Sequence record: OR594179
Source: Escherichia phage vB_EcoM_SHAK7163
Length of the DNA stretch: 44,656 nt
Reading direction: 5' to 3' (one strand)
Part shown: positions 1 to 44,562 of the stretch, in pieces
How the letters are laid out: each line of letters starts with the position of its first letter
How positions within the stretch are numbered: the first letter of the stretch is position 1
Notes under the pieces: model-generated
Seen by the model: only the letters and a program-made list of their open reading frames with translations
Databases searched by the model: none
Told to the model about the DNA's origin: nothing
Made by a program: the position numbers and the translations under genes

Positions 1-332
1 CCTAGGTTATAGCTTAGTAGACTACCTAGGTTGTACTTAGTTGGGTGGCTTAGTAACAGCTTAGTAATGTACCTTAGTTAGTCTTAGTGTCAGACCTCAG
101 TGATTGCACATGCAAGCATGTAAGATGCTAATAGGTCGCGGTCGGTAGACCGCTAAGAAGAAGTAATAGTAATAAGATGCAGTAGGAGGAACACCAGAAA
201 CCTAGCCAACCTAGCCTATCCTAGCTCTGTATCTCTTGCTTCTTCCTTAGTCTCACATGTTAGACAACCTAGGTTTACCTTAGTAGTTGTGACATGTATC
301 ACATAAATAATCTATCTTAGTGAAACTTAGTG

Positions 333-3633: not shown

Positions 3634-6261
3634 ATGCAAGACCTACACGCTATTCAACTTCAACTTGAAGAAGAAATGTTTAACGGCGGTATCCGTCGCT
3701 TTGAAGCGGACCAACAACGCCAGATTGCATCCGGTAATGAATCAGACACGGCATGGAATCGCCGCTTATTGTCCGAACTAATCGCACCTATGGCGGAAGG
3801 TATTCAGGCTTACAAGGAAGAATACGAAGGCAAGAGAGGTCGTGCACCACGTGCATTAGCTTTCATTAACTGCGTAGGAAACGAAGTGGCAGCATATATC
3901 ACCATGAAAATCGTTATGGATATGCTGAACACAGACGTTACCTTACAAGCAATCGCTATGAATGTAGCGGACCGCATCGAAGACCAAGTACGTTTTAGCA
4001 AGCTGGAAGGTCACGCAGCTAAGTACTTTGAGAAAGTGAAGAAGTCACTTAAGGCTAGCAAGACTAAATCTTATCGTCATGCGCACAACGTAGCGGTAGT
4101 AGCTGAGAAATCTGTTGCTGACCGTGACGCGGATTTCTCCCGTTGGGAGGCATGGCCTAAAGACACCTTGCTGCAAATCGGTATGACCTTGCTCGAAATA
4201 TTGGAGAATAGTGTATTCTTCAATGGTCAACCTGTCTTCCTTCGTACCTTGCGCACTAACGGCGGAAAGCATGGTGTTTACTATTTACAGACCAGTGAAC
4301 ATGTTGGAGAGTGGATAACTGCATTTAAGGAACATGTAGCGCAGCTCAGCCCTGCCTATGCACCTTGCGTTATACCTCCCCGCCCTTGGGTATCACCTTT
4401 TAACGGTGGGTTTCATACTGAGAAAGTAGCAAGCCGTATTCGTCTGGTAAAAGGCAATCGTGAGCACGTCCGCAAGCTGACCAAAAAGCAAATGCCAGCC
4501 GTTTATAAGGCTGTTAACGCTTTGCAGGCAACGAAGTGGCAGGTTAATAAAGAGGTTTTACAGGTTGTGGAGGACGTTATACGTCTAGACCTCGGCTATG
4601 GTGTGCCTTCCTTTAAACCACTCATCGACCGTGAGAACAAGCCAGCTAATCCAGTGCCGTTAGAGTTCCAGCACCTGCGAGGCCGTGAACTTAAAGAGAT
4701 GCTAACGCCGGAACAATGGCAAGCCTTCATCAACTGGAAAGGCGAATGTACCAAGCTGTATACCGCTGAAACTAAGCGCGGCAGCAAATCGGCGGCGACC
4801 GTCCGCATGGTTGGGCAGGCACGTAAATACAGCCAGTTTGACGCCATCTACTTCGTGTATGCACTGGACAGCCGCAGCCGCGTCTACGCGCAATCTAGCA
4901 CGCTCTCTCCGCAATCAAACGACTTAGGCAAGGCATTGCTCCGTTTTACCGAAGGGCAGCGCCTTGATAGCGCTGAGGCGCTTAAATGGTTTTTGGTGAA
5001 CGGGGCTAATAACTGGGGTTGGGATAAGAAAACTTTTGACGTGCGCACCGCTAACGTGATGGATAGTGAATTTCAAGACATGTGCCGTGACATTGCAGCG
5101 GATCCGCTAACCTTCACTCAATGGGTAAATGCCGACTCCCCTTACGGCTTCCTTGCATGGTGCTTTGAATATGCGCGTTATCTGGATGCACTGGATGAAG
5201 GCACGCAAGACCAATTCATGACGCACCTCCCAGTCCATCAAGATGGTAGTTGTTCTGGTATACAGCACTACAGTGCTATGCTACGCGATGCAGTAGGTGC
5301 GAAAGCGGTAAACCTTAAGCCCTCTGACTCTCCTCAAGATATTTATGGTGCCGTTGCGCAGGTAGTAATTCAGAAGAATTATGCATACATGAATGCAGAG
5401 GATGCGGAAACCTTCACTTCTGGCAGCGTGACTTTAACAGGTGCGGAACTGCGTAGTATGGCTAGTGCGTGGGATATGATAGGAATCACTCGCGGCCTAA
5501 CCAAAAAGCCCGTAATGACACTACCTTATGGCAGCACACGTCTAACCTGCCGTGAGTCAGTGATTGATTATATCGTTGATTTAGAAGAAAAAGAGGCCCA
5601 ACGGGCTATTGCGGAAGGGCGTACCGCCAATCCTGTACACCCTTTTGATAATGACCGTAAAGACAGCCTTACACCTAGCGCAGCTTATAACTATATGACA
5701 GCTTTAATCTGGCCTTCTATTTCGGAAGTGGTTAAAGCTCCTATAGTGGCAATGAAAATGATTCGTCAGCTTGCCCGTTTCGCAGCTAAAAGGAATGAAG
5801 GCTTAGAGTATACCCTGCCTACTGGCTTCATCTTGCAACAAAAGATTATGGCTACTGATATGCTCCGCGTATCTACTTGCTTGATGGGAGAAATCAAGAT
5901 GAGTCTACAGATTGAAACGGACGTAGTAGATGAAACGGCAATGATGGGCGCTGCTGCTCCTAACTTTGTGCATGGTCATGATGCCAGCCACCTTATCTTA
6001 ACAGTCTGCGACCTTGTTGATAAAGGGATTACATCTATCGCAGTTATTCATGATTCTTTTGGCACTCATGCAGGCCGTACAGCCGACCTTCGTGATAGCT
6101 TAAGGGCAGAAATGGTGAAGATGTATCAAGGCCGTAATGCACTGCAAAGCCTGCTAGATGAGCACGAAGAACGCTGGTTAGTTGATACCGGAATACAAGT
6201 ACCAGAGCAAGGGGAGTTTGACCTTAACGAAATCTTAGTTTCAGACTATTGCTTCGCATAA
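3634..6261 (+). CDS. T7-type single-subunit DNA-dependent RNA polymerase
   Basis: 875 aa; motifs [43 protein letters not shown] and C-terminal ...SDYCFA closely match remembered T7 RNAP ([22 protein letters not shown], ...FAFA). Confidence 0.97.
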
Positions 6262-6269
6262 TATTAATA

Positions 6270-6302
6270 GGCCATTCCTTCGGGAGTGGCCTTTCTTTTA
6301 CC
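6270..6302 (+). terminator. intrinsic terminator after RNAP gene (early terminator)
   Basis: GGCCATTCC-TTCG-GGAGTGGCC hairpin (9-bp stem, UUCG tetraloop) followed by TTTCTTTT. Confidence 0.65.
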
Positions 6303-6333
6303 TACTACCTGTAACATTTCATTAACATAAAGT

Positions 6334-6349
6334 GTCTCACATGTGAGAC
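6334..6349. repeat. 16-bp perfect palindrome GTCTCACATGTGAGAC (copy 1)
   Basis: Exact palindrome 3 bp upstream of promoter at 6352. Confidence 0.9.
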
Positions 6350-6351
6350 TT

Positions 6352-6374
6352 ATTTACCGGACACTATAGGATAG
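6352..6374 (+). promoter_or_regulatory. phage RNAP promoter
   Basis: ATTTACCGGACACTATAGGATAG; matches the window-wide 23-bp consensus; +1 G predicted at 6369. Confidence 0.75.
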
Positions 6375-6516
6375 CCGTCGGAGACGGGAAAGAAAGGGAA
6401 GATAAAAGGATATAAAAGGAAGTAATAGGTATTAAAGGTTATATAGGTTATCTAGGAATACCTATTACCTTCTTCCTTCCTCTTATTACCAATTAGAGGA
6501 AGGGCAGATCTAGGTT

Positions 6517-6532
6517 GTCTCACATGTGAGAC
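6517..6532. repeat. 16-bp perfect palindrome GTCTCACATGTGAGAC (copy 2)
   Basis: Exact palindrome 6 bp upstream of promoter at 6538. Confidence 0.9.
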
Positions 6533-6537
6533 TTCGT

Positions 6538-6560
6538 ATTTACCGGACAGTATAGATAAG
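6538..6560 (+). promoter_or_regulatory. phage RNAP promoter (variant)
   Basis: ATTTACCGGACAGTATAGATAAG; one substitution in the core (CAGTATAG). Confidence 0.55.
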
Positions 6561-6585
6561 ACTAACTTACTTTGGAGATTTAACC

Positions 6586-6714
6586 ATGCGTAACTTTGAG
6601 AAGATGACCCGTAAAGCTAACCGTTTTGACATGGAAGAAGGGCAGAAGAAAGGCAAGAAGCTGAATAAACCTGTCCGTGACCGTGCATCTAAACGCGCTG
6701 CGTGGGAGTTCTAA
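6586..6714 (+). CDS. gp1.1-like small basic protein
   Basis: 42 aa MRNFEKMTRKANRF...KKLNKPVRDRASKRAAWEF resembles remembered T7 gp1.1 (MRNFEKMTKRSNRNARDFE...). Confidence 0.65.
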   Translation: MRNFEKMTRKANRFDMEEGQKKGKKLNKPVRDRASKRAAWEF

Positions 6715-6717
6715 GTT

Positions 6718-8706
6718 ATGGCTATTATTCAGAATGTACCGTGTCCTGCCTGTCAAAAGAATGGACATGATATTACTGGCAACCATCTCATGATATTTGA
6801 TGATGGTGCTGGCTACTGTAATCGTGGACACTTTCATGATAATGGTAGACCTTACTATCACAAGCCGGAAGGTGGCATCGAGATAACCGAGTTACCTATT
6901 ACTGGCAATATCAAATATACACCTTCTCAATTCAAAGAAATGGAGAAGGAAGGGAAGATAAGCGACCCTAAATTACGTGCCATCGCACTTGGTGGTATGC
7001 GTATGAAAGACCGTTGGGAGGTCATGAATGAACAAGAAAGGGCAGAGCAAGAAGCAGAGTGGAAACTTGATGTTGAATGGTTCCTCACGCTTAAGCGTAA
7101 GAACCTTGTTTCCCGACACATTCGCGGCGACATTTGCGCATTGTATGATGTACGTGTCGGACACGATGAAGAGGGTAGAGTCTCGCGGCATTACTATCCA
7201 CGCTTCGAGAAAGGCGAGCTAGTAGGTGCTAAGTGTCGCACATTACCTAAAGACTTTAAGTTTGGTCATTTAGGTAAACTCTTTGGTATGCAAGATCTTT
7301 TCGGGATGAATACTTTGTCTCACGTGTTAGACAAGGGAAGACGAAAGGATTGCTTGCTTATTGTGGGTGGGGAACTGGATGCGCTAGCAGCGCAGCAGAT
7401 GCTCCTTGATTCTGCCAAGGGTACTAAGTGGGAAGGTCAACCTTACCATGTATGGTCTGTTAACAAAGGGGAGTCTTGCCTTGAAGAGATTGTGCAGAAC
7501 CGTGAACACATCGCCCAATTCAAGAAGATTATTTGGGGCTTCGATGGGGATGAGGTAGGGCAGAAGCAGAACCAGCAAGCGGCTCGCCTGTTTCCTGGCA
7601 AATCCTATATCCTTGAGTACCCTTCTGGTTGCAAAGATGCCAACAAGGCATTGATGGCTGGCAAGGCTAAAGAGTTTGTTGATGCATGGTTTAATGCCAA
7701 GTCATCTGATGAAGTCTTTGGTAGCCAGATTAAATCTATCGCATCTCAAAGGGATAAGCTCAAGGCTGCACGTCCAGAGCAAGGACTATCATGGCCTTGG
7801 CCTAAGCTGAACAAGGTAACGCTAGGTATTCGTAAGAACCAGCTTATCATTGTAGGTGCAGGGTCTGGTGTAGGTAAGACTGAGTTCCTTCGTGAAGTAG
7901 TTAAGCACCTCATTGAAGAACACGGTGAATCTGTGGGCATCATTTCTACAGAAGACCCGATGGTCAAGGTGTCCCGTGCTTTTATCGGCAAGTGGATTGA
8001 TAAGCGTATTGAGTTACCTCCAACCAACGACCCGAAAGAAGATGGATACCGCGAGGTGTTCGACTATACCGAGGAAGAAGCTAACGCCGCCATTGATTAT
8101 GTAGCTGATACAGGTAAGCTGTTTGTAGCTGACCTAGAGGGTGACTATTCGATGGAAAAGGTAGAGCAAACTTGCCTAGAGTTTGAGGCTATGGGTATTT
8201 CTAATATCATCATTGATAACTTAACGGGGATTAAATTAGATGAGCGTGCTTTTGGTGGGAAGGTTGGTGCACTTGATGAATGCGTCAAGCGGATTGGTAC
8301 TATCAAAGACCGACACCCGGTTACTATATTCCTTGTATCACACCTTACACGTCCCCCGGCAAACCGTACCCAACACGAAGAAGGTGGCGAAGTTATCCTT
8401 TCTGACTTCCGAGGCTCAGGCGCTATCGGATTCTGGGCATCTTACGCCTTGGGGATTGAGCGTAATACAAGAGCTGAAACGCTTGATGAAAGGACTACCA
8501 CGTACATCTCGTGTGTCAAAGACCGCGATCAAGGTATCTACACTGGAACCAAGGTCATGCTTAAAGGTGACATTCAGACCGGACGTTTGATGGAACCACA
8601 AGCCCGTACTAAGTCATTTGATACAGGTGAAGCAAGGCAGCAAGAGGTGCCTGATTTACCGGACACTATAGAAGAGACAAACTTTGAAGATGAACAGGAG
8701 TTTTAA
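6718..8706 (+). CDS. DNA primase/helicase
   Basis: 662 aa; N-terminal zinc-binding CPACQ...CNRGH, helicase Walker A GAGSGVGKTEF, acidic C-terminus ending EDEQEF. Confidence 0.9.
   Translation: MAIIQNVPCPACQKNGHDITGNHLMIFDDGAGYCNRGHFHDNGRPYYHKPEGGIEITELPITGNIKYTPSQFKEMEKEGKISDPKLRAIALGGMRMKDRWEVMNEQERAEQEAEWKLDVEWFLTLKRKNLVSRHIRGDICALYDVRVGHDEEGRVSRHYYPRFEKGELVGAKCRTLPKDFKFGHLGKLFGMQDLFGMNTLSHVLDKGRRKDCLLIVGGELDALAAQQMLLDSAKGTKWEGQPYHVWSVNKGESCLEEIVQNREHIAQFKKIIWGFDGDEVGQKQNQQAARLFPGKSYILEYPSGCKDANKALMAGKAKEFVDAWFNAKSSDEVFGSQIKSIASQRDKLKAARPEQGLSWPWPKLNKVTLGIRKNQLIIVGAGSGVGKTEFLREVVKHLIEEHGESVGIISTEDPMVKVSRAFIGKWIDKRIELPPTNDPKEDGYREVFDYTEEEANAAIDYVADTGKLFVADLEGDYSMEKVEQTCLEFEAMGISNIIIDNLTGIKLDERAFGGKVGALDECVKRIGTIKDRHPVTIFLVSHLTRPPANRTQHEEGGEVILSDFRGSGAIGFWASYALGIERNTRAETLDERTTTYISCVKDRDQGIYTGTKVMLKGDIQTGRLMEPQARTKSFDTGEARQQEVPDLPDTIEETNFEDEQEF
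8654..8676 (+). promoter_or_regulatory. phage RNAP promoter embedded in 3' end of primase/helicase gene
   Basis: ATTTACCGGACACTATAGAAGAG inside coding sequence (encodes ...LPDTIEE...). Confidence 0.65.
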
Positions 8707-8867
8707 TGGAAATTATTAAACCAGTATTGAATATCGGTATTGAGATCCTATTCATGCTTGTGGTCGCAGATTATGCTGCACGATATGGATTCAAGAAAGC
8801 TGTGAAACTTATCGTTGCATCTGGTTTTATTATGTCAATGTTCTTTATTGTAACACGCCTTATCTAG
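8706..8867 (+). CDS. small membrane protein (53 aa)
   Basis: ATG overlapping helicase stop (TAATG); hydrophobic MEIIKPVLNIGIEILFMLVV...; below ORF-track cutoff. Confidence 0.35.
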   Translation: MEIIKPVLNIGIEILFMLVVADYAARYGFKKAVKLIVASGFIMSMFFIVTRLI

Positions 8868-8884
8868 TGTATTTATCAGGGCTT

Positions 8885-8900
8885 GTCTCACATGTGAGAC
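8885..8900. repeat. 16-bp perfect palindrome GTCTCACATGTGAGAC (copy 3, extended stem)
   Basis: Flanks extend complementarity (CTTGTCTCACATGTGAGACAGG), followed by CTCTTATT. Confidence 0.9.
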
Positions 8901-8939
8901 AGGCTCTTATTAAGTACATTAAATAACTGGAGATTGATT

Positions 8940-9662
8940 ATGTATAAATTAGTGTTGAATGTAGGTGACTTTGTACGAAACATCAAGAAAGATTCAAGTC
9001 GCTATCTTTGCCGTGGTGTTGTAACCTTTGTAGGTGAGAACCTGTATTATGTAGAATATCACAGTGGTGTTAAGCAATATTACCACAAAAAGACAGCACA
9101 TAAATATCTTGAAAAGATTGTAGAGGTAAACAATCAATGTAAGTGCATATATGATGAGGTTTGCGATAAGTGCAAACGTCAGGCAATTAAAGCCTTTACC
9201 TTTGCTCAACGCTATGGTTCTATGTATGGTGCTGGTCACAAGACCGTTGCAGAAGCAGCTTGGAAGACATTGCAGTTTGAGAGTTCAAATGGACGACGCA
9301 CCACACTCAAGAAAGAGCGTCGCAATGTAATCACCGGTAAGACTCAAAGTGAGATGATTAAGCAATGTGGCACTGCATTAGGTGTTACACAGTTTAATAC
9401 TCGTGCATTGGGTAAATCCACAGGACAAGCTATGGTAAAGATTGGAGAAGCCATGATGCATCCAAATGTACCTGTGCGAATCATGGATGTTGACCATGCA
9501 ATCACAGAACAAGGTACGCAACGACGTGTAATTAATAAGCATTTTGCCGACACTATAGAAGGCATTATTCGTAAGCAAGGGTTGAAAGGTCTTCACATCT
9601 TAAATGGTGAAGAATTACTGTACCTACCTATCGTTACTGAAGAAACATACGTGAATATCTAA
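8940..9662 (+). CDS. hypothetical protein (240 aa)
   Basis: First ATG after GGAG SD (track uses TTG at 8934); no recognisable motifs. Confidence 0.55.
   Translation: MYKLVLNVGDFVRNIKKDSSRYLCRGVVTFVGENLYYVEYHSGVKQYYHKKTAHKYLEKIVEVNNQCKCIYDEVCDKCKRQAIKAFTFAQRYGSMYGAGHKTVAEAAWKTLQFESSNGRRTTLKKERRNVITGKTQSEMIKQCGTALGVTQFNTRALGKSTGQAMVKIGEAMMHPNVPVRIMDVDHAITEQGTQRRVINKHFADTIEGIIRKQGLKGLHILNGEELLYLPIVTEETYVNI
9541..9563 (+). promoter_or_regulatory. possible weak phage promoter inside coding sequence
   Basis: ATTTTGCCGACACTATAGAAGGC; core GACACTATAGAAG conserved, upstream part diverged. Confidence 0.3.
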
Positions 9663-9891: not shown

Positions 9892-10090
9892 ACATAGTCT
9901 TAAAATGTTCGATGGTCATGAAGACCTGCAAGCCAAGATTACTAACCAAGCCTTCCTGTTCGCACAGTTAACTATGGCTGAAGCAAAGAAGAATAGCCTG
10001 ACGCGTGAACAGGTTATCAAGGAGGCAACTTGGGAGCCACACCAAGGTAAGTATATGGGGCAGAAGGTAACTGTAACACGCAGTCGATAA
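9881..10090 (+). CDS. hypothetical protein (69 aa)
   Basis: ORF overlapping previous stop by 11 nt. Confidence 0.45.
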   Translation: MQNKHSLKMFDGHEDLQAKITNQAFLFAQLTMAEAKKNSLTREQVIKEATWEPHQGKYMGQKVTVTRSR

Positions 10091-10100
10091 GTCAAGGGTT

Positions 10101-10116
10101 GTCTCACACGTGAGAC
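10101..10116. repeat. 16-bp perfect palindrome GTCTCACACGTGAGAC (copy 4, CACGTG centre)
   Basis: Extended by GGTT/AGCC flanks; followed by TTTCATCAT. Confidence 0.9.
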
Positions 10117-10147
10117 AGCCTTTCATCATATTGATTGGAGGTGCATT

Positions 10148-13207: not shown

Positions 13208-13275
13208 GTTATACTCAAGGTCACTTACGAGTGGCCTTTATGAATAACTTATTCCTACTTATTTTGTCTAACATG

Positions 13276-13298
13276 ATTTACTGGACACTATAGAAGGA
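13276..13298 (+). promoter_or_regulatory. phage RNAP promoter
   Basis: ATTTACTGGACACTATAGAAGGA. Confidence 0.75.
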
Positions 13299-13362
13299 AA
13301 GCCTAGGTAATCTAGGTTTATAAGGTAGTATAGGTAATTAAGTAAATATAGGAGATATAAAT

Positions 13363-13740
13363 ATGTCTATGGTAACTACTCTGGTATTCGTGGCTCAATA
13401 CTTTCGTGGTCTTGCTAATAAGTTCAAGTCCAAGGCTATCAAAGCTATTGAGGCTCGCATCGAAGCAGTACAGGCAGAGCAAGTTAAAGTTGAAGAACAT
13501 CGTAGTTCTCAAATGATTGACTGTCATAACCGCTACTATGCATCTCGTGATGAACTAAATGCACGTCAAGTCAAAGAGGTAGAAGATATGCTGGCACGTC
13601 ACCAGCAAGAGCGTGACAGCCTGAAAGCTGAATTTGAAGAGAACAAGGCATCAATTGCTCTTGTAAATCAAGCTGCATCTGACAGCCTGAAGAAAGAGAT
13701 TGTTATGCTGGAAATAGAACTGGACAACTTGACTAAATAA
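13363..13740 (+). CDS. hypothetical protein (125 aa), predicted coiled coil
   Basis: SD TAGGAG; heptad-like charged sequence. Confidence 0.55.
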   Translation: MSMVTTLVFVAQYFRGLANKFKSKAIKAIEARIEAVQAEQVKVEEHRSSQMIDCHNRYYASRDELNARQVKEVEDMLARHQQERDSLKAEFEENKASIALVNQAASDSLKKEIVMLEIELDNLTK

Positions 13741-15159: not shown

Positions 15160-15175
15160 GTCTCACGTGTGAGAC
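15160..15175. repeat. palindrome-family element GTCTCACGTGTGAGAC (copy 5, one mismatch)
   Basis: Single substitution relative to consensus; 15 bp upstream of promoter at 15191. Confidence 0.8.
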
Positions 15176-15190
15176 AAATCGGTGTCCGGT

Positions 15191-15213
15191 ATTTACTGGA
15201 CACTATAGAAGAG
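15191..15213 (+). promoter_or_regulatory. phage RNAP promoter
   Basis: ATTTACTGGACACTATAGAAGAG (exact consensus). Confidence 0.8.
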
Positions 15214-28635: not shown

Positions 28636-31583
28636 TGGCAATTGAGCGACAAGCAATACAAGGTCTGCCACAAGTGCAGGCCACTTCTCCTAATGTCATG
28701 ACCTTTGCACCTCAACAAGTGGGAGGTGTGGAGGCTGGCGTGGCTTCTACCTCCGGTAGTAGATTTATCGAAGACCTTATTCGTGCAGCAAGCAGCGTGG
28801 CTGATGTTACCACTGGTATCCTTAATCAGAAGATTGAGGAAGATAAGGTTGTTCAAATGGAACGGGCATATAACGGATTAATGCCTTCTGAGGATGCAAC
28901 TCGTGGTGGCGCTCGTGCTAACATGCTTGTCAAAGCTCAACTGCTAGCTAATGATGAAGCAGCACGAATGAAAGACATGGCTACTCGTTTCCAAGGGACG
29001 GATGACGAGTGGACACAACTTATGGTTGACTCTCGTAATGAGATGCAGAATAAGCTGTTCCAGCAATACCCTGAGTTGCAAGGTGACAAAGATACTATGC
29101 GTATGGTCACTAATGTCTTCCAAGAACAGCAGCCTCAGATTTGGGCTACACGGACCCAGCATAAACTTGACCGTGAACAAGCAGACCGTGAGGACACCTT
29201 TGACGGGCGAGTGGCTTCTACTTGGGATTCTAATATTGACCCTGAAGCTTCTGGCTATGCTTTACAGGAACGAATCCGCGAAGGTCTTACTCAAGGGTTA
29301 CTACCTGAACAGATGTACAAGAAGTTAGTCCAGCGAGCAATTTCACTTGCACAAGGCGGTGATGTTAGCATGGCTGAAGCCCTGAAGTATGTGAAGGACG
29401 ATAAGGGTGTTTCTGTTTATGCTAAGAATCCACAGCTTATCACAGCCATCACTAGTGGTAATGCAGTTTGGGCTAGGAATAATGTAGCTGATGTAACTCG
29501 TATGTCTTTCGAAGTTAAAGAATCCTACCTTGCAGGTGATTTAACTGATGAAGAATTGTTGGAACGAGCACAGCACATTAATAATCTGACAGGTAACTCT
29601 GTCTTCTCTAATCCAGAACTAGAGGCACTGATGCGCCAACGGGCTAAGCAGAATGCAGAGCTAGGTGCAATGCAGGATATGCGACGTGAGCTTTACTCCG
29701 ATCGCCTGACTGGCTTCCAAGGTAAGACTGACAAAGAGAAGAAGGCTTACATTGATGTTATCAAACAGGATAGCCAACTTTATGCAGACCAGCAAATCAA
29801 ACAACGTGGCTTGGACCCTTACAGTCAAGAGGCTGAAGCTATTCGTGGTGCAGTGGAAGTGCAGCGCCTGCAATTCATGAACTCCAAAGGCTTAGTGGAT
29901 GATACCTTTGAGTCTCGTATCAAAGCCATGGAATCTATGCTATCGCCTGAGCACTTTGCCAAGGGCGAACCACAGGAGTTGATGACTATTCGCCAGTTGT
30001 GGGAACAGTTACCAGAAGAGAGCCGAGGTGTCTTTGGTGACACGGTGAATGGCTATATGGATAACTACAACACTGCACTACAAATGGGAGAGACACCTTT
30101 GCAGGCTGCAAGGTTTGCGCGTGAAGCACAGCAGAAATTCTCTCGTACTGAGAAGGAAACCAAGAAGTTCAACTCAGCTATTGGAGATGCACTGGATGAG
30201 GTATCTGGTGCTGGCTGGTTTGATGGTAAAACCGAAGTGTCAGACTTAGGTAAAGCTATTGCGGAAGAAGAGTTACGAGCTAAGGCCAATATGTTGTGGT
30301 CTAGTGGTATGCGTAACATGGACTCCATCAAGAAGGCTTTAATTACTTGGGGCAATAAACGCTACACTCAATCAGAGGATGCAAAGACTTCCGGTGGCTA
30401 TTTCATTAAAGGTGATTACACTTCTGCATCTGATATGCTTATGTCAGTTGGGAAAGGCGTAAACCCTACCGATGTACCTCTGGCGCTTGGTAGATATGTA
30501 GAAACACAGATGCCAGAATTGAAGAAGGAGCTTCAAGAGTGGGAAACTAAAGATGATATATACATTGATTACAATGAACAGAAAGGAACTTTTGTGATTC
30601 GTGCTGGTGCAGCAGGTCGCCCTCTTTCTGGAGTAATCCCTGTAACCTCTTTAGATACTACTTCACTACTAGATTCTGCCTATCAGAAGAAAGTAGAGGA
30701 ACGAGATAAAGGCGAGTATGTTCACCCGTATCGTACAGATATTGGTGCACAAGAGTCTATGCCAGCTAAACCAACTGCCAAAGATATTGGTAAATTTGGA
30801 CTAGCTAACTTCCTCATGTCTTCTGCTTTTGCTTCTGGTGAGAATCTGCCTTCTAACTTCGAGATTAACTATCGAGGTAATATGCAACAATTCTATGACA
30901 AGCTAGCTATGGATGAGAATAAAGATAAAGTTGGCTTTAATAAGGCAACTGGAACCTTTACTCCATATAAAGACGCTCACGGTGAGTCTATCGGTTACGG
31001 TCATTTCTTAACGGAAGAAGAGAAGCGAAACGGGTATATTAAGATTGGCGATGAACTAGTTCCCTATCGAGGGTCTATGTCTCAGCTTACAGAGAGCAAG
31101 GCTCGCGCTCTTATGGAGCAAGATGCTAAGAAGCATGTGCCTCCTACTCGTGACTGGAAGATTCCGTTTGACCAGATGCATCCTGCACAGCAACGTGGCT
31201 TGATGGATTTAACCTACAATTTAGGTAAAGGTGGAATCCAGAACTCACCGCGTGCTCTTGCTGCATTCAAAGCTGGTAAGCTTACGGAAGGCTTTATCGA
31301 AATGCTGGGCACTGCATCAAGTGAAGGTAAGCGTATTCCTGGCCTATTGAAGCGACGCGCTGAGGCATACAATATGGCATCTGCTGGTGGTGTGCCTAAG
31401 ATTACCGAAGTGGAGACTCGTGAAGATGGCTCCATGTGGGTTAGGTTTGGTGGACCTATGCCAGCAGGTTCTGTCTCGGCATGGACTCATAAACGTATTG
31501 GCGAGGATGGTTGGTATCAGGTTTATGAGGCTGCACCTACCAAGTTAGCTAAAGGTTCTAAGGTAGGTAAAGTTAAGTTGTAG
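28635..31583 (+). CDS. internal virion (ejection) protein with C-terminal lysozyme-like muralytic domain
   Basis: 982 aa; C-terminal region GESIGYGHFLTEEE...LMDLTYNLGKGG...GLLKRRAEAY resembles T4-lysozyme-type motifs (TIGIGHLLTK, ALINMVFQMGETG). Confidence 0.8.
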   Translation: MAIERQAIQGLPQVQATSPNVMTFAPQQVGGVEAGVASTSGSRFIEDLIRAASSVADVTTGILNQKIEEDKVVQMERAYNGLMPSEDATRGGARANMLVKAQLLANDEAARMKDMATRFQGTDDEWTQLMVDSRNEMQNKLFQQYPELQGDKDTMRMVTNVFQEQQPQIWATRTQHKLDREQADREDTFDGRVASTWDSNIDPEASGYALQERIREGLTQGLLPEQMYKKLVQRAISLAQGGDVSMAEALKYVKDDKGVSVYAKNPQLITAITSGNAVWARNNVADVTRMSFEVKESYLAGDLTDEELLERAQHINNLTGNSVFSNPELEALMRQRAKQNAELGAMQDMRRELYSDRLTGFQGKTDKEKKAYIDVIKQDSQLYADQQIKQRGLDPYSQEAEAIRGAVEVQRLQFMNSKGLVDDTFESRIKAMESMLSPEHFAKGEPQELMTIRQLWEQLPEESRGVFGDTVNGYMDNYNTALQMGETPLQAARFAREAQQKFSRTEKETKKFNSAIGDALDEVSGAGWFDGKTEVSDLGKAIAEEELRAKANMLWSSGMRNMDSIKKALITWGNKRYTQSEDAKTSGGYFIKGDYTSASDMLMSVGKGVNPTDVPLALGRYVETQMPELKKELQEWETKDDIYIDYNEQKGTFVIRAGAAGRPLSGVIPVTSLDTTSLLDSAYQKKVEERDKGEYVHPYRTDIGAQESMPAKPTAKDIGKFGLANFLMSSAFASGENLPSNFEINYRGNMQQFYDKLAMDENKDKVGFNKATGTFTPYKDAHGESIGYGHFLTEEEKRNGYIKIGDELVPYRGSMSQLTESKARALMEQDAKKHVPPTRDWKIPFDQMHPAQQRGLMDLTYNLGKGGIQNSPRALAAFKAGKLTEGFIEMLGTASSEGKRIPGLLKRRAEAYNMASAGGVPKITEVETREDGSMWVRFGGPMPAGSVSAWTHKRIGEDGWYQVYEAAPTKLAKGSKVGKVKL

Positions 31584-31600
31584 TACCTAACTCAAGGCTT

Positions 31601-31616
31601 GTCTCACATGTGAGAC
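31601..31616. repeat. 16-bp perfect palindrome GTCTCACATGTGAGAC (copy 6, extended stem)
   Basis: GCTTGTCTCACATGTGAGACAGGTC then CTTTATG; lies between two internal virion protein genes. Confidence 0.9.
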
Positions 31617-31647
31617 AGGTCTTTATGATAGGCACTATGGAGGAATT

Positions 31648-36417: not shown

Positions 36418-38312
36418 TGGCTAAGGCAAGAGAATCACAAGCGGAGGCTCTTGCCAGATGGGAGATGCTACAGGAGTTACAGCAGACTTTTCCGTATACG
36501 GCGGAAGGTTTGCTTCTCTTTGCAGATACAGTTATCCATAACTTGATTGCAGGCAACCCTCATCTGATTCGTATGCAGGCCGATATTTTAAAGTTTCTAT
36601 TCTATGGACATAAATATCGCCTCATCGAAGCGCCCCGTGGTATCGCTAAGACAACACTATCAGCAATCTATACGGTATTCCGTATTATTCATGAACCGCA
36701 TAAGCGTATCATGGTTGTGTCCCAAAACGCCAAGCGAGCAGAGGAAATCGCAGGCTGGGTAGTTAAAATCTTCCGTGGCTTAGACTTTCTTGAGTTTATG
36801 CTGCCGGATATCTACGCTGGGGACCGTGCATCCGTTAAGGCGTTTGAGATTCATTACACCCTACGTGGTAGTGATAAGTCTCCTTCTGTATCCTGTTACT
36901 CAATCGAAGCAGGTATGCAGGGTGCTCGTGCTGATATTATTCTAGCAGATGACGTAGAATCGATGCAGAATGCTCGTACAGCGGCAGGACGTGCCTTGCT
37001 TGAGGAACTGACCAAGGAGTTTGAATCTATTAACCAGTTTGGTGATATTATCTACCTTGGTACTCCTCAGAACGTAAACTCTATCTACAATAACCTACCT
37101 GCACGTGGTTACTCTGTTCGTATCTGGACTGCACGTTATCCCTCAGTGGAGCAGGAGCAATGCTATGGTGACTTCCTTGCACCTATGATTGTGCAGGATA
37201 TGAAGGACAACCCAGCACTTCGCTCAGGGTATGGCTTGGATGGCAATAGTGGTGCCCCTTGTGCACCTGAAATGTATGATGATGATGTGCTGATTGAGAA
37301 GGAAATCTCGCAGGGTGCGGCTAAGTTCCAGCTTCAGTTTATGCTTAACACTCGCATGATGGATGCTGACCGCTATCCGCTACGCCTGAACAACCTCATC
37401 TTCACTTCATTCGGTACAGAGGAAGTCCCTGTGATGCCTACATGGAGCAACGACTCTATTAACATCATTGGCGATGCACCGAAGTATGGCAATAAGCCTA
37501 CAGACTTTATGTATCGCCCTGTGGCCCGACCTTATGAGTGGGGCGCTGTTACCCGTAAGATTATGTATATTGACCCAGCGGGTGGCGGTAAGAACGGGGA
37601 CGAAACAGGCGTATCGATTGTCTTCCTGCACGGCACATTCATTTACGTGTACCAGTGCTTCGGTGTGCCAGGTGGATACCGAGAATCGTCCCTGAATCGC
37701 ATTGTGCAGGCCGCAAAGCAGGCAGGTGTTAAAGAGGTATTCATTGAGAAGAACTTTGGTCATGGCGCGTTTGAGGCCGTTATAAAGCCATACTTTGAAC
37801 GAGAGTGGCCTGTGACTCTGGAGGAAGATTACGCCACCGGACAGAAAGAGTTGCGTATCATTGAAACACTAGAGCCACTAATGGCGGCCCACAGGCTCAT
37901 CTTCAACGCAGAGATGGTCAAGTCTGATTTTGAGTCGGTACAGCACTATCCGCTTGAACTACGCATGTCATACAGCCTTTTCAATCAAATGTCGAACATC
38001 ACGATTGAGAAGAACAGCCTACGACACGATGACCGCTTAGACGCTCTGTATGGCGCTATACGGCAATTAACTTCTCAAATAGACTATGACGAGGTTACAC
38101 GGATTAATCGCCTCAGAGCGCAGGAGATGCGCGATTACATCCATGCTATGAACACACCTCACCTCCGTAGGGCAATGCTCTATGGAGATTATGGCACTGA
38201 GCGAAGAGTAACCAACACTTCCGTGGCTATGCAGCAAAGAGTATACGGTCAGAATTACAGGAGTAAATCGGCAAGCAGAAATACACTTTCTGCAAGGATT
38301 TCAAGGATTTAG
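36417..38312 (+). CDS. terminase large subunit (gp19-like)
   Basis: 631 aa from ATG overlapping upstream stop; Walker A-like EAPRGIAKTT; position. Confidence 0.9.
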   Translation: MAKARESQAEALARWEMLQELQQTFPYTAEGLLLFADTVIHNLIAGNPHLIRMQADILKFLFYGHKYRLIEAPRGIAKTTLSAIYTVFRIIHEPHKRIMVVSQNAKRAEEIAGWVVKIFRGLDFLEFMLPDIYAGDRASVKAFEIHYTLRGSDKSPSVSCYSIEAGMQGARADIILADDVESMQNARTAAGRALLEELTKEFESINQFGDIIYLGTPQNVNSIYNNLPARGYSVRIWTARYPSVEQEQCYGDFLAPMIVQDMKDNPALRSGYGLDGNSGAPCAPEMYDDDVLIEKEISQGAAKFQLQFMLNTRMMDADRYPLRLNNLIFTSFGTEEVPVMPTWSNDSINIIGDAPKYGNKPTDFMYRPVARPYEWGAVTRKIMYIDPAGGGKNGDETGVSIVFLHGTFIYVYQCFGVPGGYRESSLNRIVQAAKQAGVKEVFIEKNFGHGAFEAVIKPYFEREWPVTLEEDYATGQKELRIIETLEPLMAAHRLIFNAEMVKSDFESVQHYPLELRMSYSLFNQMSNITIEKNSLRHDDRLDALYGAIRQLTSQIDYDEVTRINRLRAQEMRDYIHAMNTPHLRRAMLYGDYGTERRVTNTSVAMQQRVYGQNYRSKSASRNTLSARISRI

Positions 38313-38313
38313 T

Positions 38314-38336
38314 ATTTACTGGACACTATAGGAGGA
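38314..38336 (+). promoter_or_regulatory. phage RNAP promoter
   Basis: ATTTACTGGACACTATAGGAGGA. Confidence 0.8.
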
Positions 38337-38469
38337 AGACCAAGAGAATAAAGGAATATTATAGGATAATATAGGATTACCTAGGTTATATAGGTACACC
38401 TTATTATGAGGGTACTCCTGTACCCTCTTCTTATCTACTTCATTATTTACTAGAAACAAGGAGTATAGA

Positions 38470-44252: not shown

Positions 44253-44562
44253 CTCGCCCTCGCCCTCGCCGGGTTGCCCCCCCCCCCCATAGGGTGGCCT
44301 GAGGGAATCCGTCTTCGACGGGCAGGGCTGATGTACTCCTTGTACTAGCTTAGTAGTACACAAGGGCTGGCCGTACTAGTTAGCTGGTACAGCCTAGTCT
44401 TTGCTCATGTACTAGCAAGGTGGAACGCGGTAGACGGCCTAGGACAGCCTAGGAATGGCTTAGTGGTGGACAAGGTGATTACCTTAGTGAAGCCTCTTAG
44501 TGCATTCCTGAGGCCATTCAGGGCGTTTATGAGGGATTGACAGGGTGGGTGTGGGTGGGCTA
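44253..44562. repeat. 310-bp unit, copy 2 of exact tandem duplication (probable terminal repeat, left-end copy)
   Basis: Identical to 43943-44252; contains C12 tract, (CTCGCC)3 and G-tract cluster GGGTGGGTGTGGGTGGG. Confidence 0.9.

Follow-up and report, generated by a model that had tools for sequence, protein, structure and literature searches.

A region of a K1E/K1-5-like phage that probably corresponds to the T7 gene 1-gene 1.1 control region and is a candidate replication origin

Introduction

T7-type replication origins depend on a promoter for the phage RNA polymerase, and in T7 itself phi1.1A/B are the primary origins, with phiOR and phi6.5 as secondary origins (PMC8373140). The T7 annotation places phi1.1A at 5848 and phi1.1B at 5923, both between gene 1 and gene 1.1, within a region that runs phi1.1A-R1.1-phi1.1B-AT-rich leader-gene 1.1. 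The region of T7 phiOL we take to be a further secondary origin. The RNase III sites of T7 (R0.3, R0.5, R1.1, R1.3, R18.5 and others) lie close to phage promoters. In the SP6/K1E group, by comparison, we found no experimental mapping of a replication origin in the accessible literature; according to PMC4837284, Dobbins 2004 placed an SP6 origin close to the gene for DNA polymerase (gene 14). The open-access literature makes no mention of the palindromes described below, of an SP6-group origin at the present locus or of RNase III sites, which earlier genome papers may do.

Results

Position and conservation of the locus

The window, by which we mean the whole 44,656-nucleotide stretch of DNA analysed here (Escherichia phage vB_EcoM_SHAK7163, OR594179), is a Vectrevirus genome (K1E/K1-5-like). 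The locus of interest (Table 1) has the RNA polymerase gene on its 5′ side and, on its 3′ side, a 42-aa open reading frame that matches Pfam family PF08200 (Phage_1_1, the T7 gp1.1 family) with an E-value of 8.2e-16. Because the T7 primary origin region is flanked in the same way, the position of the locus matches it, as a preliminary description of this DNA had proposed. In our candidate origin region the primase-helicase gene follows directly, unlike in the T7 region.

Directly past the RNA polymerase gene, and ahead of the elements considered below, the stem-loop and T run of an intrinsic terminator were confirmed. Its stem has 10 bp, including six G-C pairs; the terminator is kept in 16 genomes, with a stem that changes between lineages, and is annotated as such in KAW1A4500 and PM116. 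It is probably the early terminator for the host RNA polymerase, with a role equivalent to that of T7 TE, although it stands at the head of the region, and T7 TE is located another 1.7 kb downstream. An alignment of 16 genomes from three lineages (Vectrevirus, Zindervirus and Klebsiella phages) shows the same order of elements throughout, and most of the layout also occurs in Proteus phage PM116, Klebsiella phage H01 and Aeromonas phage HJG. A coding-potential check found no plausible open reading frame inside 6262-6585, no host sigma-70 promoter was found on the + strand of the region, and no Rfam family came near its gathering score there. In relatives, HNH endonuclease genes are inserted just upstream of the second palindrome (pal2) or downstream of the gp1.1 gene.

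The locus also contains a near-invariant box. Of its 21 positions, 18 do not vary among Vectrevirus, Zindervirus and Klebsiella phages and a further one is conserved at ≥90%, compared with only 51-66% identity at synonymous third positions of the flanking genes. The box occurs once per genome and is absent from PM116, H01 and HJG; the search for a host sigma-70 promoter included it. Since it lies upstream of the first phage promoter (P1) and outside the P1 transcript, its conservation suggests an extra function at the DNA level that is unique to this locus.

Table 1. Coordinates of the features of the locus, of its neighbours and of the related palindromes in the window
Feature	Position	Strand	Remarks
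RNA polymerase ORF	3634-6261		Upstream neighbour of the locus
Intrinsic terminator	6269-6299	+	Stem-loop 6269-6292, then T run; directly after the RNA polymerase ORF
Near-invariant box, ACCTGTAACATTTCATTAACA	6307-6327	+	GTAACA and TTAACA direct repeats 11 bp apart
pal1, GTCTCACATGTGAGAC	6334-6349	.	Perfect 16-bp palindrome; spans −35 to −20 of P1
Phage promoter P1, ATTTACCGGACACTATA-G	6352-6369	+	+1 at G6369; transcript start GGAUAG
5′ stem-loop of the P1 transcript, CCGUC-GGA-GACGG	6375-6387	+	Predicted fold
AT-rich, purine-rich tract	6388-6456	+	W-AGG-W motifs every ~9-10 nt
Inverted repeat A, AAGGAAGTAATAGGTATT / AATACCTATTACCTTCTT	6416-6433 / 6457-6474	+	18-nt arms, 89% complementary
Inverted repeat B, CCTTCCTCTTATT / AATTAGAGGAAGG	6475-6487 / 6491-6503	+	New in this analysis
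pal2, GTCTCACATGTGAGAC	6517-6532	.	Perfect 16-bp palindrome; spans −38 to −23 of P2
Phage promoter P2, ATTTACCGGACAGTATA-G	6538-6555	+	+1 at G6555
Ribosome-binding site GGAG and 42-aa ORF	6574-6577 and 6586-6714	+	Homologue of T7 gp1.1
Primase-helicase ORF	6718-8706		Matches DnaB_C and Toprim; directly after the gp1.1 homologue
Other palindrome copies	250, 7317, 8885, 10101, 15160, 31601		Besides those at 6334 and 6517

Two palindrome-promoter modules

Every feature of the preliminary description was found, either exactly where it had been placed or a few bases away. A module of palindrome plus phage promoter had been reported in two copies about 185 bp apart. Both copies are present, at 6334-6369 and 6517-6555, each with an SP6-type promoter, and their spacing is 183-186 bp. 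The P1 core (TTACCGGACACTATAG, 6354-6369) is an exact match to the promoter core of the genome and is invariant in 16 of 16 aligned genomes. The P2 core (TTACCGGACAGTATAG, 6540-6555) does carry the substitution noted earlier, a C>G change at position −5, but P2 is not a decaying site, since its deviation is conserved within lineages: the −5 G is invariant in nine Vectrevirus genomes and common to Proteus PM116 (GACCAGTATAGATA), and the SP6 and Klebsiella lineages have TATTG instead, with the change at position −1. Over the whole window the promoter pattern, allowing up to three mismatches, has 13 matches against 0.28 expected. Judged by their sequence, P1 and P2 would supply the phage promoter that a T7-type origin needs.

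The T7 primary origin region likewise has two tandem phage promoters and an RNA hairpin element right upstream of the second; pal2 is the positional counterpart of R1.1, and pal2 with P2 mirrors R1.1 with phi1.1B. The promoters are 186 bp apart here versus 75 bp in T7, and bare 16-bp palindromes stand before both of them, whereas a search of T7 found no such family.

Structure of the P1 leader

The predicted stem-loop at the 5′ end of the P1 transcript covaries, a G-C pair being replaced by A-U in CrRp3, T205P4 and mutPK1A2 and by U-A in Klebsiella H01, and conservation of its sequence extends to Aeromonas phage HJG. By eye, several other promoter leaders in the window have apparent short inverted repeats near their start.

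The purine- and AT-rich stretch described earlier between the modules was confirmed, both by purine content and by the low stability discussed below: no other 80-nt window of the + strand is as rich in purines as 6359-6438 (77.5%), 6376-6456 (81 bases) is 74% purine on the non-template strand, and 6388-6452 is 72% A+T. The tract is built of tandem repeats of period 9, 10 and 19 and contains seven WAGGW motifs per 100 nt against a genome average of ~0.7. Such W-AGG-W repeats are found in exactly three promoter leaders ahead of genes, at 6.4, 13.3 and 38.3 kb; T7 origins are without them, and the combination of phased repeats with a complementary CCU arm likewise sets the locus apart from the T7 primary origin region. 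In H01 and HJG the tract is no longer purine-rich (purine fractions 0.50 and 0.43), which weakens an argument from R-loops.

The imperfect inverted repeat previously placed at about 6418-6475 was found, as repeat A; in single strands, whether of DNA or of the P1 leader RNA, its arms are predicted to pair into a hairpin of ~20 bp. A hairpin in the leader RNA and an origin element read equally well for it. The preliminary description did not include repeat B, which has nine pairs, is invariant within Vectrevirus and has a shorter equivalent in SP6. As single-stranded DNA, repeats A and B fold better than shuffled sequence (z = −3.1 and −3.6). Every lineage folds a long hairpin here from a purine arm and a pyrimidine arm despite different primary sequence, at modest z values of −1.0 to −4.8, and this hairpin is more stable on the + than on the − strand in 12 of 15 cases. 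Its arms are invariant within Vectrevirus and unalignable between lineages, so what these comparisons establish is conservation of structure and not strict covariation.

These features raise the question of whether the leader serves an RNA function and nothing else. In one such account the region would act in expression and RNA processing with no replication role, the origin lying elsewhere or being non-specific, and the W-AGG-W tract would serve translation or RNA stability as a leader, in one class with those at 13.3 and 38.3 kb. The resemblance of W-AGG-W repeats to ribosome-binding sequences, their occurrence in exactly those three leaders ahead of genes, a 5′ stabilising stem-loop typical of an mRNA leader and a conserved hairpin architecture, which points to constraint at the RNA level, are all consistent with it. 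However, leaders of the same kinds in T7 are mapped origins, so that expression and origin roles are not exclusive, and the invariant box outside the P1 transcript points to a function in the DNA. We regard a purely expressional role as rather unlikely.

It is very improbable that P1 instead yields a separate non-coding transcript of ~165-175 nt, with its 3′ end at the pal2 hairpin and a U-rich sequence, that would, for example, use SD-like and anti-SD-like tracts to titrate ribosomes or a protein. Structure extends along the leader from the 5′ hairpin to pal2, pal2 and the following UUCGUAUUU were flagged as terminator-like, and the CCU-rich arm has CCUCCUU-type sequences in SP6 and Klebsiella phages, which resemble the 3′ end of 16S rRNA. 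Yet the pal2 hairpin is weak (6 bp) and its U run interrupted, pal2 is missing from PM116 and H01, and the Rfam search gave no match.

A dispersed family of palindromes

The palindrome has eight matches in the window against 0.26 expected, and the eight sites are orthologous in SP6, K1E and ULIP33. With six further copies elsewhere, it is not specific to the proposed origin; the palindromes belong to a dispersed family of RNA hairpins tied to RNase III-type processing sites. We defined the family by the pattern GTC[TC][CA]AC, a centre of 2-3 nt and GT[GT][AG]GAC at orthologous positions. Both pal1 and pal2 are exact members, with orthologues in K1E, SP6, ULIP33 and other Klebsiella and Salmonella phages. 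In SP6 and in Klebsiella, Proteus and Aeromonas phages the palindrome orthologous to pal1 has either a 3-nt centre or arms with compensatory changes, PM116, H01 and HJG being among its carriers; pal2 is found in Vectrevirus, Zindervirus and ULIP33-type Klebsiella phages and is absent from PM116 and H01.

The sites at 8885, 10101 and 31601 fold as two-part RNA hairpins (z = −6.4, −4.9 and −3.2, respectively). Of the 23 pairs at 10101 and the 22 at 31601, seven and six, respectively, show compensatory changes. G-U pairs are fixed on the + strand, and the covariation supports the hairpins at both sites. Like T7 RNase III sites, these three candidate cleavage sites lie between genes, and their hairpins consist of two stems, upper and lower, joined by an asymmetric internal loop. 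The upper stem has 13 bp versus ~10 bp in T7, and the top of the stem is the conserved 16-nt palindrome, unlike at the T7 sites. The flank pattern CAAGG...YYTTWAT occurs exactly in the window at 31593-31626 (palindrome site 31601) and at the palindrome-free 13216-13241. In T7 the same pattern occurs at 865-890, 1440-1468, 5860-5887 and 36829-36856, matches that are not annotated in the T7 record used and that we take to be RNase III sites R0.3, R0.5, R1.1 and R18.5. The shared pattern suggests that T7-type RNase III processing sites may exist in the SP6/K1E group.

At the locus itself pal1 folds only as a bare 6-7-bp hairpin without an extended stem (z = −0.8), and pal2 as a bare 6-bp hairpin (z = +0.8) that retains the left flank CTAGGTT of the extended sites. 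A two-part hairpin of ~20 bp with a lower stem was found for neither palindrome, and the flank consensus CAAGG...YYTTWAT(GA) has no match inside 6262-6585. Hairpins of 6-7 bp are too short for RNase III; we therefore infer the role of pal1 and pal2 from family membership only. Cleavage by RNase III is unlikely at pal1, pal2 and sites 250 and 15160, since all four have neither a lower stem nor the flank consensus.

Conservation of the hairpin apex, GTCTCAC-RY-GTGAGAC or GTCCAAC-RY-GTTGGAC, reaches from the SP6/K1E group to a Colwellvirinae phage of Aeromonas, and one copy is kept within the primase-helicase reading frame with an accompanying amino-acid change. To our knowledge RNase III does not read loop-proximal sequence in this way, which leaves the deep conservation of the apex unexplained by that enzyme. 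Nor do we know of an E. coli transcription-factor site that fits the palindrome. One conceivable answer, which we consider a long shot, is that the apex is the recognition element of a putative trans-acting factor and that the phased W-AGG-W repeats are iteron-like origin marks; the factor may be a phage hairpin-binding protein, a nuclease or the phage RNA polymerase itself, for which the apex may be a terminate-and-restart signal. If so, the arrangement pal-P1-repeats-pal-P2 would represent a novel type of module, serving as origin and for transcription reset, and more than an echo of T7. Genome-wide co-evolution of the palindrome with one factor, considered in this context, is weakened by the presence of both arm types within single genomes, namely PST_H2 and the CrRp3-like contig L052.

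Conservation of the apex far beyond the needs of a hairpin, with arms typed by lineage, would also be expected of double-stranded DNA operators, at which a dimeric regulator of phage or host would control P1, P2 and the remaining sites, for instance to stop middle transcription or to prevent read-through. Perfect 16-bp dyads do lie 20-23 bp (pal1 and pal2) and 33 bp (15160) upstream of three phage promoter starts, another lies upstream of the left-end early promoter region, and a copy persists in the primase-helicase frame alongside the amino-acid change. However, the length of the centre is not fixed (3 nt in PM116 and HJG, 2 nt in some other phages), which a hairpin would tolerate and a rigid dimer would not; both arm types coexist in L052 and PST_H2; the spacing between palindrome and promoter ranges over 20-33 nt; and at the extended sites G-U rather than A-C pairs, together with covarying outer stems, indicate selection on the + strand RNA. 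Operators are thus an improbable explanation of the palindromes.

Half-palindromes upstream of the promoters at 13293 and 40685 were dropped from consideration, being not conserved in SP6. In a scan of IMG/VR, a collection whose size we know only approximately, single matches to the palindrome were at about the estimated chance level, and arrays in the high-GC contigs L097 and L100 look like unrelated coincidences. One metagenomic contig in that collection has the palindrome followed by a T3/T7-type promoter.

DNA stability and the origin question

A stability scan ranked 6398-6497 as the second least stable 100-bp window, with <0.02% of windows less stable. The other top sites, at 13.3 and 38.3 kb, are both just downstream of phage promoters, and sites orthologous to 6398-6497 are among the five least stable in K1E, SP6 and ULIP33. 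Applied to T7, the scan finds the least stable windows just downstream of phiOL, phi1.1B, phi6.5 and phiOR. The DNA downstream of the promoter is thus among the least stable of the genome at our locus and in the T7 primary origin region alike, but the unstable tract lies between the promoters here and after both in T7. Easily melted, AT-rich DNA stands right downstream of the promoter, as a T7-type origin requires, and because a phage promoter fires into DNA that is both very unstable and purine-rich, the region follows the T7 recipe for a transcription-primed origin. From this analysis the region can probably act as an origin.

That it is the primary origin, as first proposed, does not follow: the recipe and the T7-like position hold, but the leaders at 13.3 and 38.3 kb fit equally. 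These leaders score the same as or better than the one at 6.4 kb, which is not unique in this respect; the DNA at 13.3 kb is a little less stable, and an R1.1-like hairpin directly precedes the promoter there. All three loci combine a promoter with an unstable leader, as do the T7 secondary origins (phiOL, phi6.5 and phiOR). Since the scan flags all of them, the label 'primary' is not assignable from the sequence, and the region is one of three T7-type origin candidates, with the 13.3-kb site as a serious rival.

A primary origin composed of the duplicated modules and the AT-rich inverted-repeat tract, in which P1 or P2 transcripts would act in the unstable tract as primers for the phage DNA polymerase, with the primase-helicase loading on the displaced strand, is possible, and we entertain it tentatively. 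Positional homology with the T7 primary origin argues for it, as does the coincidence, directly past a consensus promoter, of the second least stable window with the most purine-rich non-template tract; the stability criterion recovers T7 origins, and of the three candidates this one is nearest to the left genome end and to the RNA polymerase gene. On the other side, the 13.3-kb leader is less stable and has both hairpin and promoter, and that at 38.3 kb is similar; the palindromes recur at six other sites as RNA-hairpin elements; and the SP6 gene 14 origin (PMC4837284) is near the orthologue of the 13.3-kb site. Low stability, moreover, does not single out the primary origin even in T7, where the phiOL region is the least stable and yet secondary.

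The plain GC and AT skew profile is monotonic. Detrended cumulative GC skew has its minimum 0.3-0.65 kb to the right of the region in 4 of 4 Molineuxvirinae genomes, which would favour a primary origin here, but the signal is not significant (block-shuffle p values of 0.05-0.25), the same procedure misplaces the T7 origin (minimum at 9537), and the minimum coincides with the boundary between early and middle genes. GC skew was therefore rejected as origin evidence.

Discussion

The region is best read as a control region for transcription and RNA processing in which an origin role is plausible, and we put at roughly 0.6 the probability that, in the SP6/K1E group, it corresponds to the control region that T7 has between genes 1 and 1.1. 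In such a control region the host RNA polymerase would stop at the terminator, and the phage RNA polymerase, once made, would start at P1 (+1 6369) and more weakly at P2 (+1 6555), leading to expression of gp1.1 and the primase-helicase. The P1 leader, of 217 nt, would open with a protective 5′ stem-loop, followed by the phased W-AGG-W tract, which would pair with the CCU-rich tract after it to form a long leader hairpin. We infer that pal1 and pal2 are bare copies of the apex that elsewhere caps two-part hairpins resembling RNase III sites, and that, just upstream of the promoters, they serve, most probably, to mark the 3′ ends of read-through transcripts or to protect them.

Phages of the SP6/K1E group are used in therapy and engineering and are the source of the SP6 and K1E RNA polymerases. 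For genome engineering, the analysis marks 6262-6585 as densely functional, and the HNH insertions of relatives show which sites are tolerated. For the group as a whole, the search for an origin is narrowed to three defined loci by a criterion calibrated on T7, and a deeply conserved hairpin apex is identified whose conservation known RNase III behaviour does not explain.

Architecture and conservation of the 6262-6585 region

The window is essentially a whole Vectrevirus genome, K1E/K1-5-like and of the SP6 supergroup (Autographiviridae, Molineuxvirinae), and its segment 6200-6720 is 97-98% identical to K1E, K1-5, vB_EcoP_C and about 75 further records. Since no direct terminal repeat is present within the window, one repeat copy seems to have collapsed or the record to be permuted relative to K1E; the ends (1-100 and 44300-44500) are crowded with short CCTAGG and CTTAGT repeats.

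The preliminary description had proposed the stretch just after the RNA polymerase gene and its terminator as a candidate primary replication origin, in the position equivalent to that of T7. Positional homology with the T7 primary origin holds, with the RNA polymerase gene upstream and the gp1.1 homologue downstream, and sequence checks recovered the terminator, both palindrome-promoter modules and the inverted repeat that had been described. Neither a plausible ORF nor an Rfam match was found for 6262-6585. Both module components occur far above chance in the window (promoter motif, 13 matches versus 0.28 expected; palindrome, 8 versus 0.26).

Features of the region and of the related hairpins
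Feature	Position	Remarks
Single-subunit RNA polymerase	ORF 3634-6261	
Terminator hairpin	6269-6292	followed by T run
Near-invariant box ACCTGTAACATTTCATTAACA	6307-6327	GTAACA and TTAACA repeats 11 bp apart
Perfect palindrome GTCTCACATGTGAGAC, pal1	6334-6349	
Promoter P1 TTACCGGACACTATAG	6354-6369	+1 at G6369
5' stem-loop CCGUC-GGA-GACGG	6375-6387	
Inverted repeat, 18 nt	6416-6433, 6457-6474	arms 89% complementary
Second inverted repeat	6475-6487, 6491-6503	absent from the preliminary description
Perfect palindrome GTCTCACATGTGAGAC, pal2	6517-6532	
Promoter P2 TTACCGGACAGTATAG	6540-6555	+1 at G6555; C>G at -5
gp1.1 homologue, 42 aa	ORF 6586-6714	Pfam PF08200 (T7 gp1.1 family), E 8e-16
Primase-helicase	ORF 6718-8706	
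Palindrome copies, eight in window	250-265, 6334-6349, 6517-6532, 7317-7332, 8885-8900, 10101-10116, 15160-15175, 31601-31616	
Extended hairpins	8860-8926, 10072-10145, 31578-31640	

We aligned the interval from 16 phages (nine Vectrevirus; the Zindervirus phages SP6, Kenya-K30 and BP12B; four Klebsiella Molineuxvirinae). All 16 share one order of elements: terminator, box, pal1, P1, 5' stem-loop, AT-rich W-AGG-W tract, complementary CCU-rich tract, pal2, off-consensus P2, ribosome-binding site and gp1.1. Synonymous third positions of the flanking genes reach only 51-66% identity across the aligned lineages, so the box, promoter cores and stem-loop are under constraint. The box, almost invariant across three lineages and unique in the genome, lies upstream of P1 and outside its transcript, and the stem-loop covaries, its G-C pair being replaced by U-A in Klebsiella H01 and by A-U in three of the Vectrevirus genomes.

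The layout is largely retained in more distant phages. In Proteus PM116 (Acadevirus), a palindrome and a promoter are followed by CCGTCGGAGACGG, nine copies of TAGGTA, a CT-rich stretch and another promoter, GACCAGTATAGATA, with the -5 G of P2; Klebsiella H01 resembles it, and Aeromonas HJG (Colwellvirinae) carries GTCTCAC-GCC-GTGAGAC, then CCGTCGGAGACGG and phased TAGTAG repeats. The core substitution noted in P2 is real, and the deviation is kept within lineages (Vectrevirus and Acadevirus share the -5 G, the SP6 and Klebsiella lineages a T at -1), so that, judged by its distribution, it looks tuned rather than decayed.

HNH homing-endonuclease genes are inserted at the locus in PST_H2, UAB_Phi78, BP12B, LL11, PM116, VEc3 and vB_Ec-G9, either in the gap separating the CCU tract from pal2 or on the downstream side of P2 or gp1.1; the module thus tolerates large changes of spacing at those points. 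Salmonella phage SE29 (Zindervirus; its locus 430-740) has K1E-type palindromes in three tandem palindrome-promoter modules instead of two. Upstream of the RNA polymerase gene, a phage-promoter-like variant in the early region (2271-2286, ATTTAGCTGACACTATA-A) has A for G at +1, as in K1E, SP6 and ULIP33. Among IMG/VR contigs 3300025030_000256 and _000582, one metagenomic contig shows GTCTCACACGTGAGAC, one base and then a sequence like a T3/T7-type promoter, AATTAACCCGGACTATAGGGG; the module thus seems not to be confined to the Molineuxvirinae.

The leader of the P1 transcript

W-AGG-W recurs every 9-10 nt in the AT-rich tract (TRF periods 9, 10 and 19), and 6359-6438 is the most purine-rich stretch of the non-template strand, which would favour a stable RNA-DNA hybrid; purine-richness is absent from the H01 and HJG tracts. 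In the P1 transcripts of the window, SP6 and ULIP33 the AGG-rich half folds on the CCU-rich half as a long imperfect hairpin. Such a hairpin was found in 15 genomes representing about eight semi-independent lineages (z -1.0 to -4.8), and in 12 of the 15 the + strand gave a more stable fold than the - strand. Its arms are unalignable between lineages and, because they are invariant within Vectrevirus, strict covariation is absent. The inverted repeats of the window are also significant when folded as single-stranded DNA. The inverted repeat is therefore a conserved structure, which may act as RNA or as DNA.

The palindromes form a genome-wide hairpin family

The palindromes had been read as parts of an origin module; they proved instead to belong to a hairpin family with eight sites across the genome. 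They occupy orthologous positions in SP6, K1E and Klebsiella ULIP33 with lineage-typed arms, GTCTCAC/GTGAGAC in the K1E type and GTC(T/C)AAC/GTTGGAC in the SP6 and Klebsiella type, which differ by a compensatory double change. The copy at 7317 lies in the primase-helicase frame, where the amino acids follow the arm type (LSHVLDKG versus MSNVLDKG). A palindrome could also mark a dimeric protein site on duplex DNA; because the centre measures 2 nt or, as in PM116 and HJG, 3 nt, both arm types occur together in single genomes (PST_H2 and the CrRp3-like contig L052) and the sites contain G-U pairs on the + strand, these observations point to a + strand hairpin.

The sites at 8885, 10101, 31601 and 7317 fold as long two-part hairpins (z -6.4, -4.9, -3.2 and -3.6, respectively), in which the palindrome caps an upper stem of 13 bp, joined through an asymmetric internal loop to a lower stem of 9-11 bp. 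Orthologue alignments revealed compensatory changes in both stems, at 7 of 23 pairs for 10101 and 6 of 22 for 31601, with G-U pairs fixed. By contrast, only a bare hairpin of 6-7 bp forms at pal1, at pal2 and at sites 250 and 15160 (z about 0), pal2 retaining only the CTAGGTT left flank.

Scanning for the flank pattern CAAGG-N(12-40)-YYTTWAT gave 865-890, 1440-1468, 5860-5887 and 36829-36856 in T7, using a record that annotates promoters and not RNase III sites. We take these to be R0.3, R0.5, R1.1 and R18.5. The window matches were 31593-31626 (site 31601) and 13216-13241; the latter, CAAGGTCACTTACGAGTGGCCTTTAT, lacks the palindrome, forms a hairpin almost identical to T7 R1.1 and closely precedes the promoter at 13278-13293. 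The flanks of the extended hairpins resemble those of the T7 sites, and RNase III substrates are built as two-part hairpins whose internal loop directs single-strand cleavage, leaving a protective 3' hairpin (PMC3867540). The three extended hairpins are probable RNase III processing sites.

Around codon 200 of the primase-helicase ORF, the palindrome sits on a long hairpin (7290-7357, z -3.6) that SP6 and Klebsiella phages also keep, there directly preceded by an in-frame ATG (TTG in the window); internal processing or an internal start could occur at this site. Beside the palindrome at 15160, an inverted repeat at 15180-15205 (GGTGTCCGG and CTGGACAC), which includes the core of the promoter with +1 at 15208, would form a 10-bp hairpin in read-through RNA.

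Three loci fit the sequence recipe of a T7-type origin

T7 replication starts in the phi1.1A/phi1.1B region; once this is deleted, initiation passes to secondary origins, among them phiOR and phi6.5, and every T7 origin requires a phage promoter (PMC8373140). We scanned duplex stability with nearest-neighbour energies in 60-bp and 100-bp windows. The metric recovers the published T7 origins, since in T7 the lowest stability falls immediately downstream of phiOL (417), phi1.1B (5931), phi6.5 (18561) and phiOR (39248). The three least stable spots in the phage are 13288-13304, after the promoter whose +1 is 13293; 6398-6400, after P1; and 38307-38347, after the promoter whose +1 is 38331. Their orthologues rank among the five least stable in K1E, SP6 and ULIP33. 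Dense W-AGG-W is confined to these leaders (6-8 per 100 nt versus a genome mean of 0.7). Leaders 13293-13363, 38331-38400 and 6369-6456 form a class of three with phased, TAGGTA-like W-AGG-W and very low duplex stability, kept in all four Molineuxvirinae genomes examined.

The T7-type sequence recipe is therefore present at the proposed origin, but the 13.3 and 38.3 kb loci fit it equally well. The 13216-13241 locus, just upstream of the promoter whose +1 is 13293 and of the least stable DNA, is a rival origin candidate; the orthologue of the 13.3 kb leader lies just downstream of the DNA polymerase gene (SP6 gene 14), and a secondary source (PMC4837284) credits Dobbins et al. with suggesting a bidirectional SP6 origin at gene 14. 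A GC-skew change point, which in four genomes falls 0.3-0.65 kb to the region's right, was not significant, failed the T7 control and coincides with the early/middle gene boundary. From sequence, we put the probability that the region can act as an origin at roughly 0.6; that it is the primary one seems less likely than not.

By its layout, the region is most readily seen as what the SP6 group has in place of the T7 gene 1-1.1 control region, pal2 and P2 corresponding in position to R1.1 and phi1.1B. It would combine the early terminator with two middle-class promoters that serve gp1.1 and the primase-helicase, a leader with secondary structure, and hairpins of the kind related to RNase III sites.
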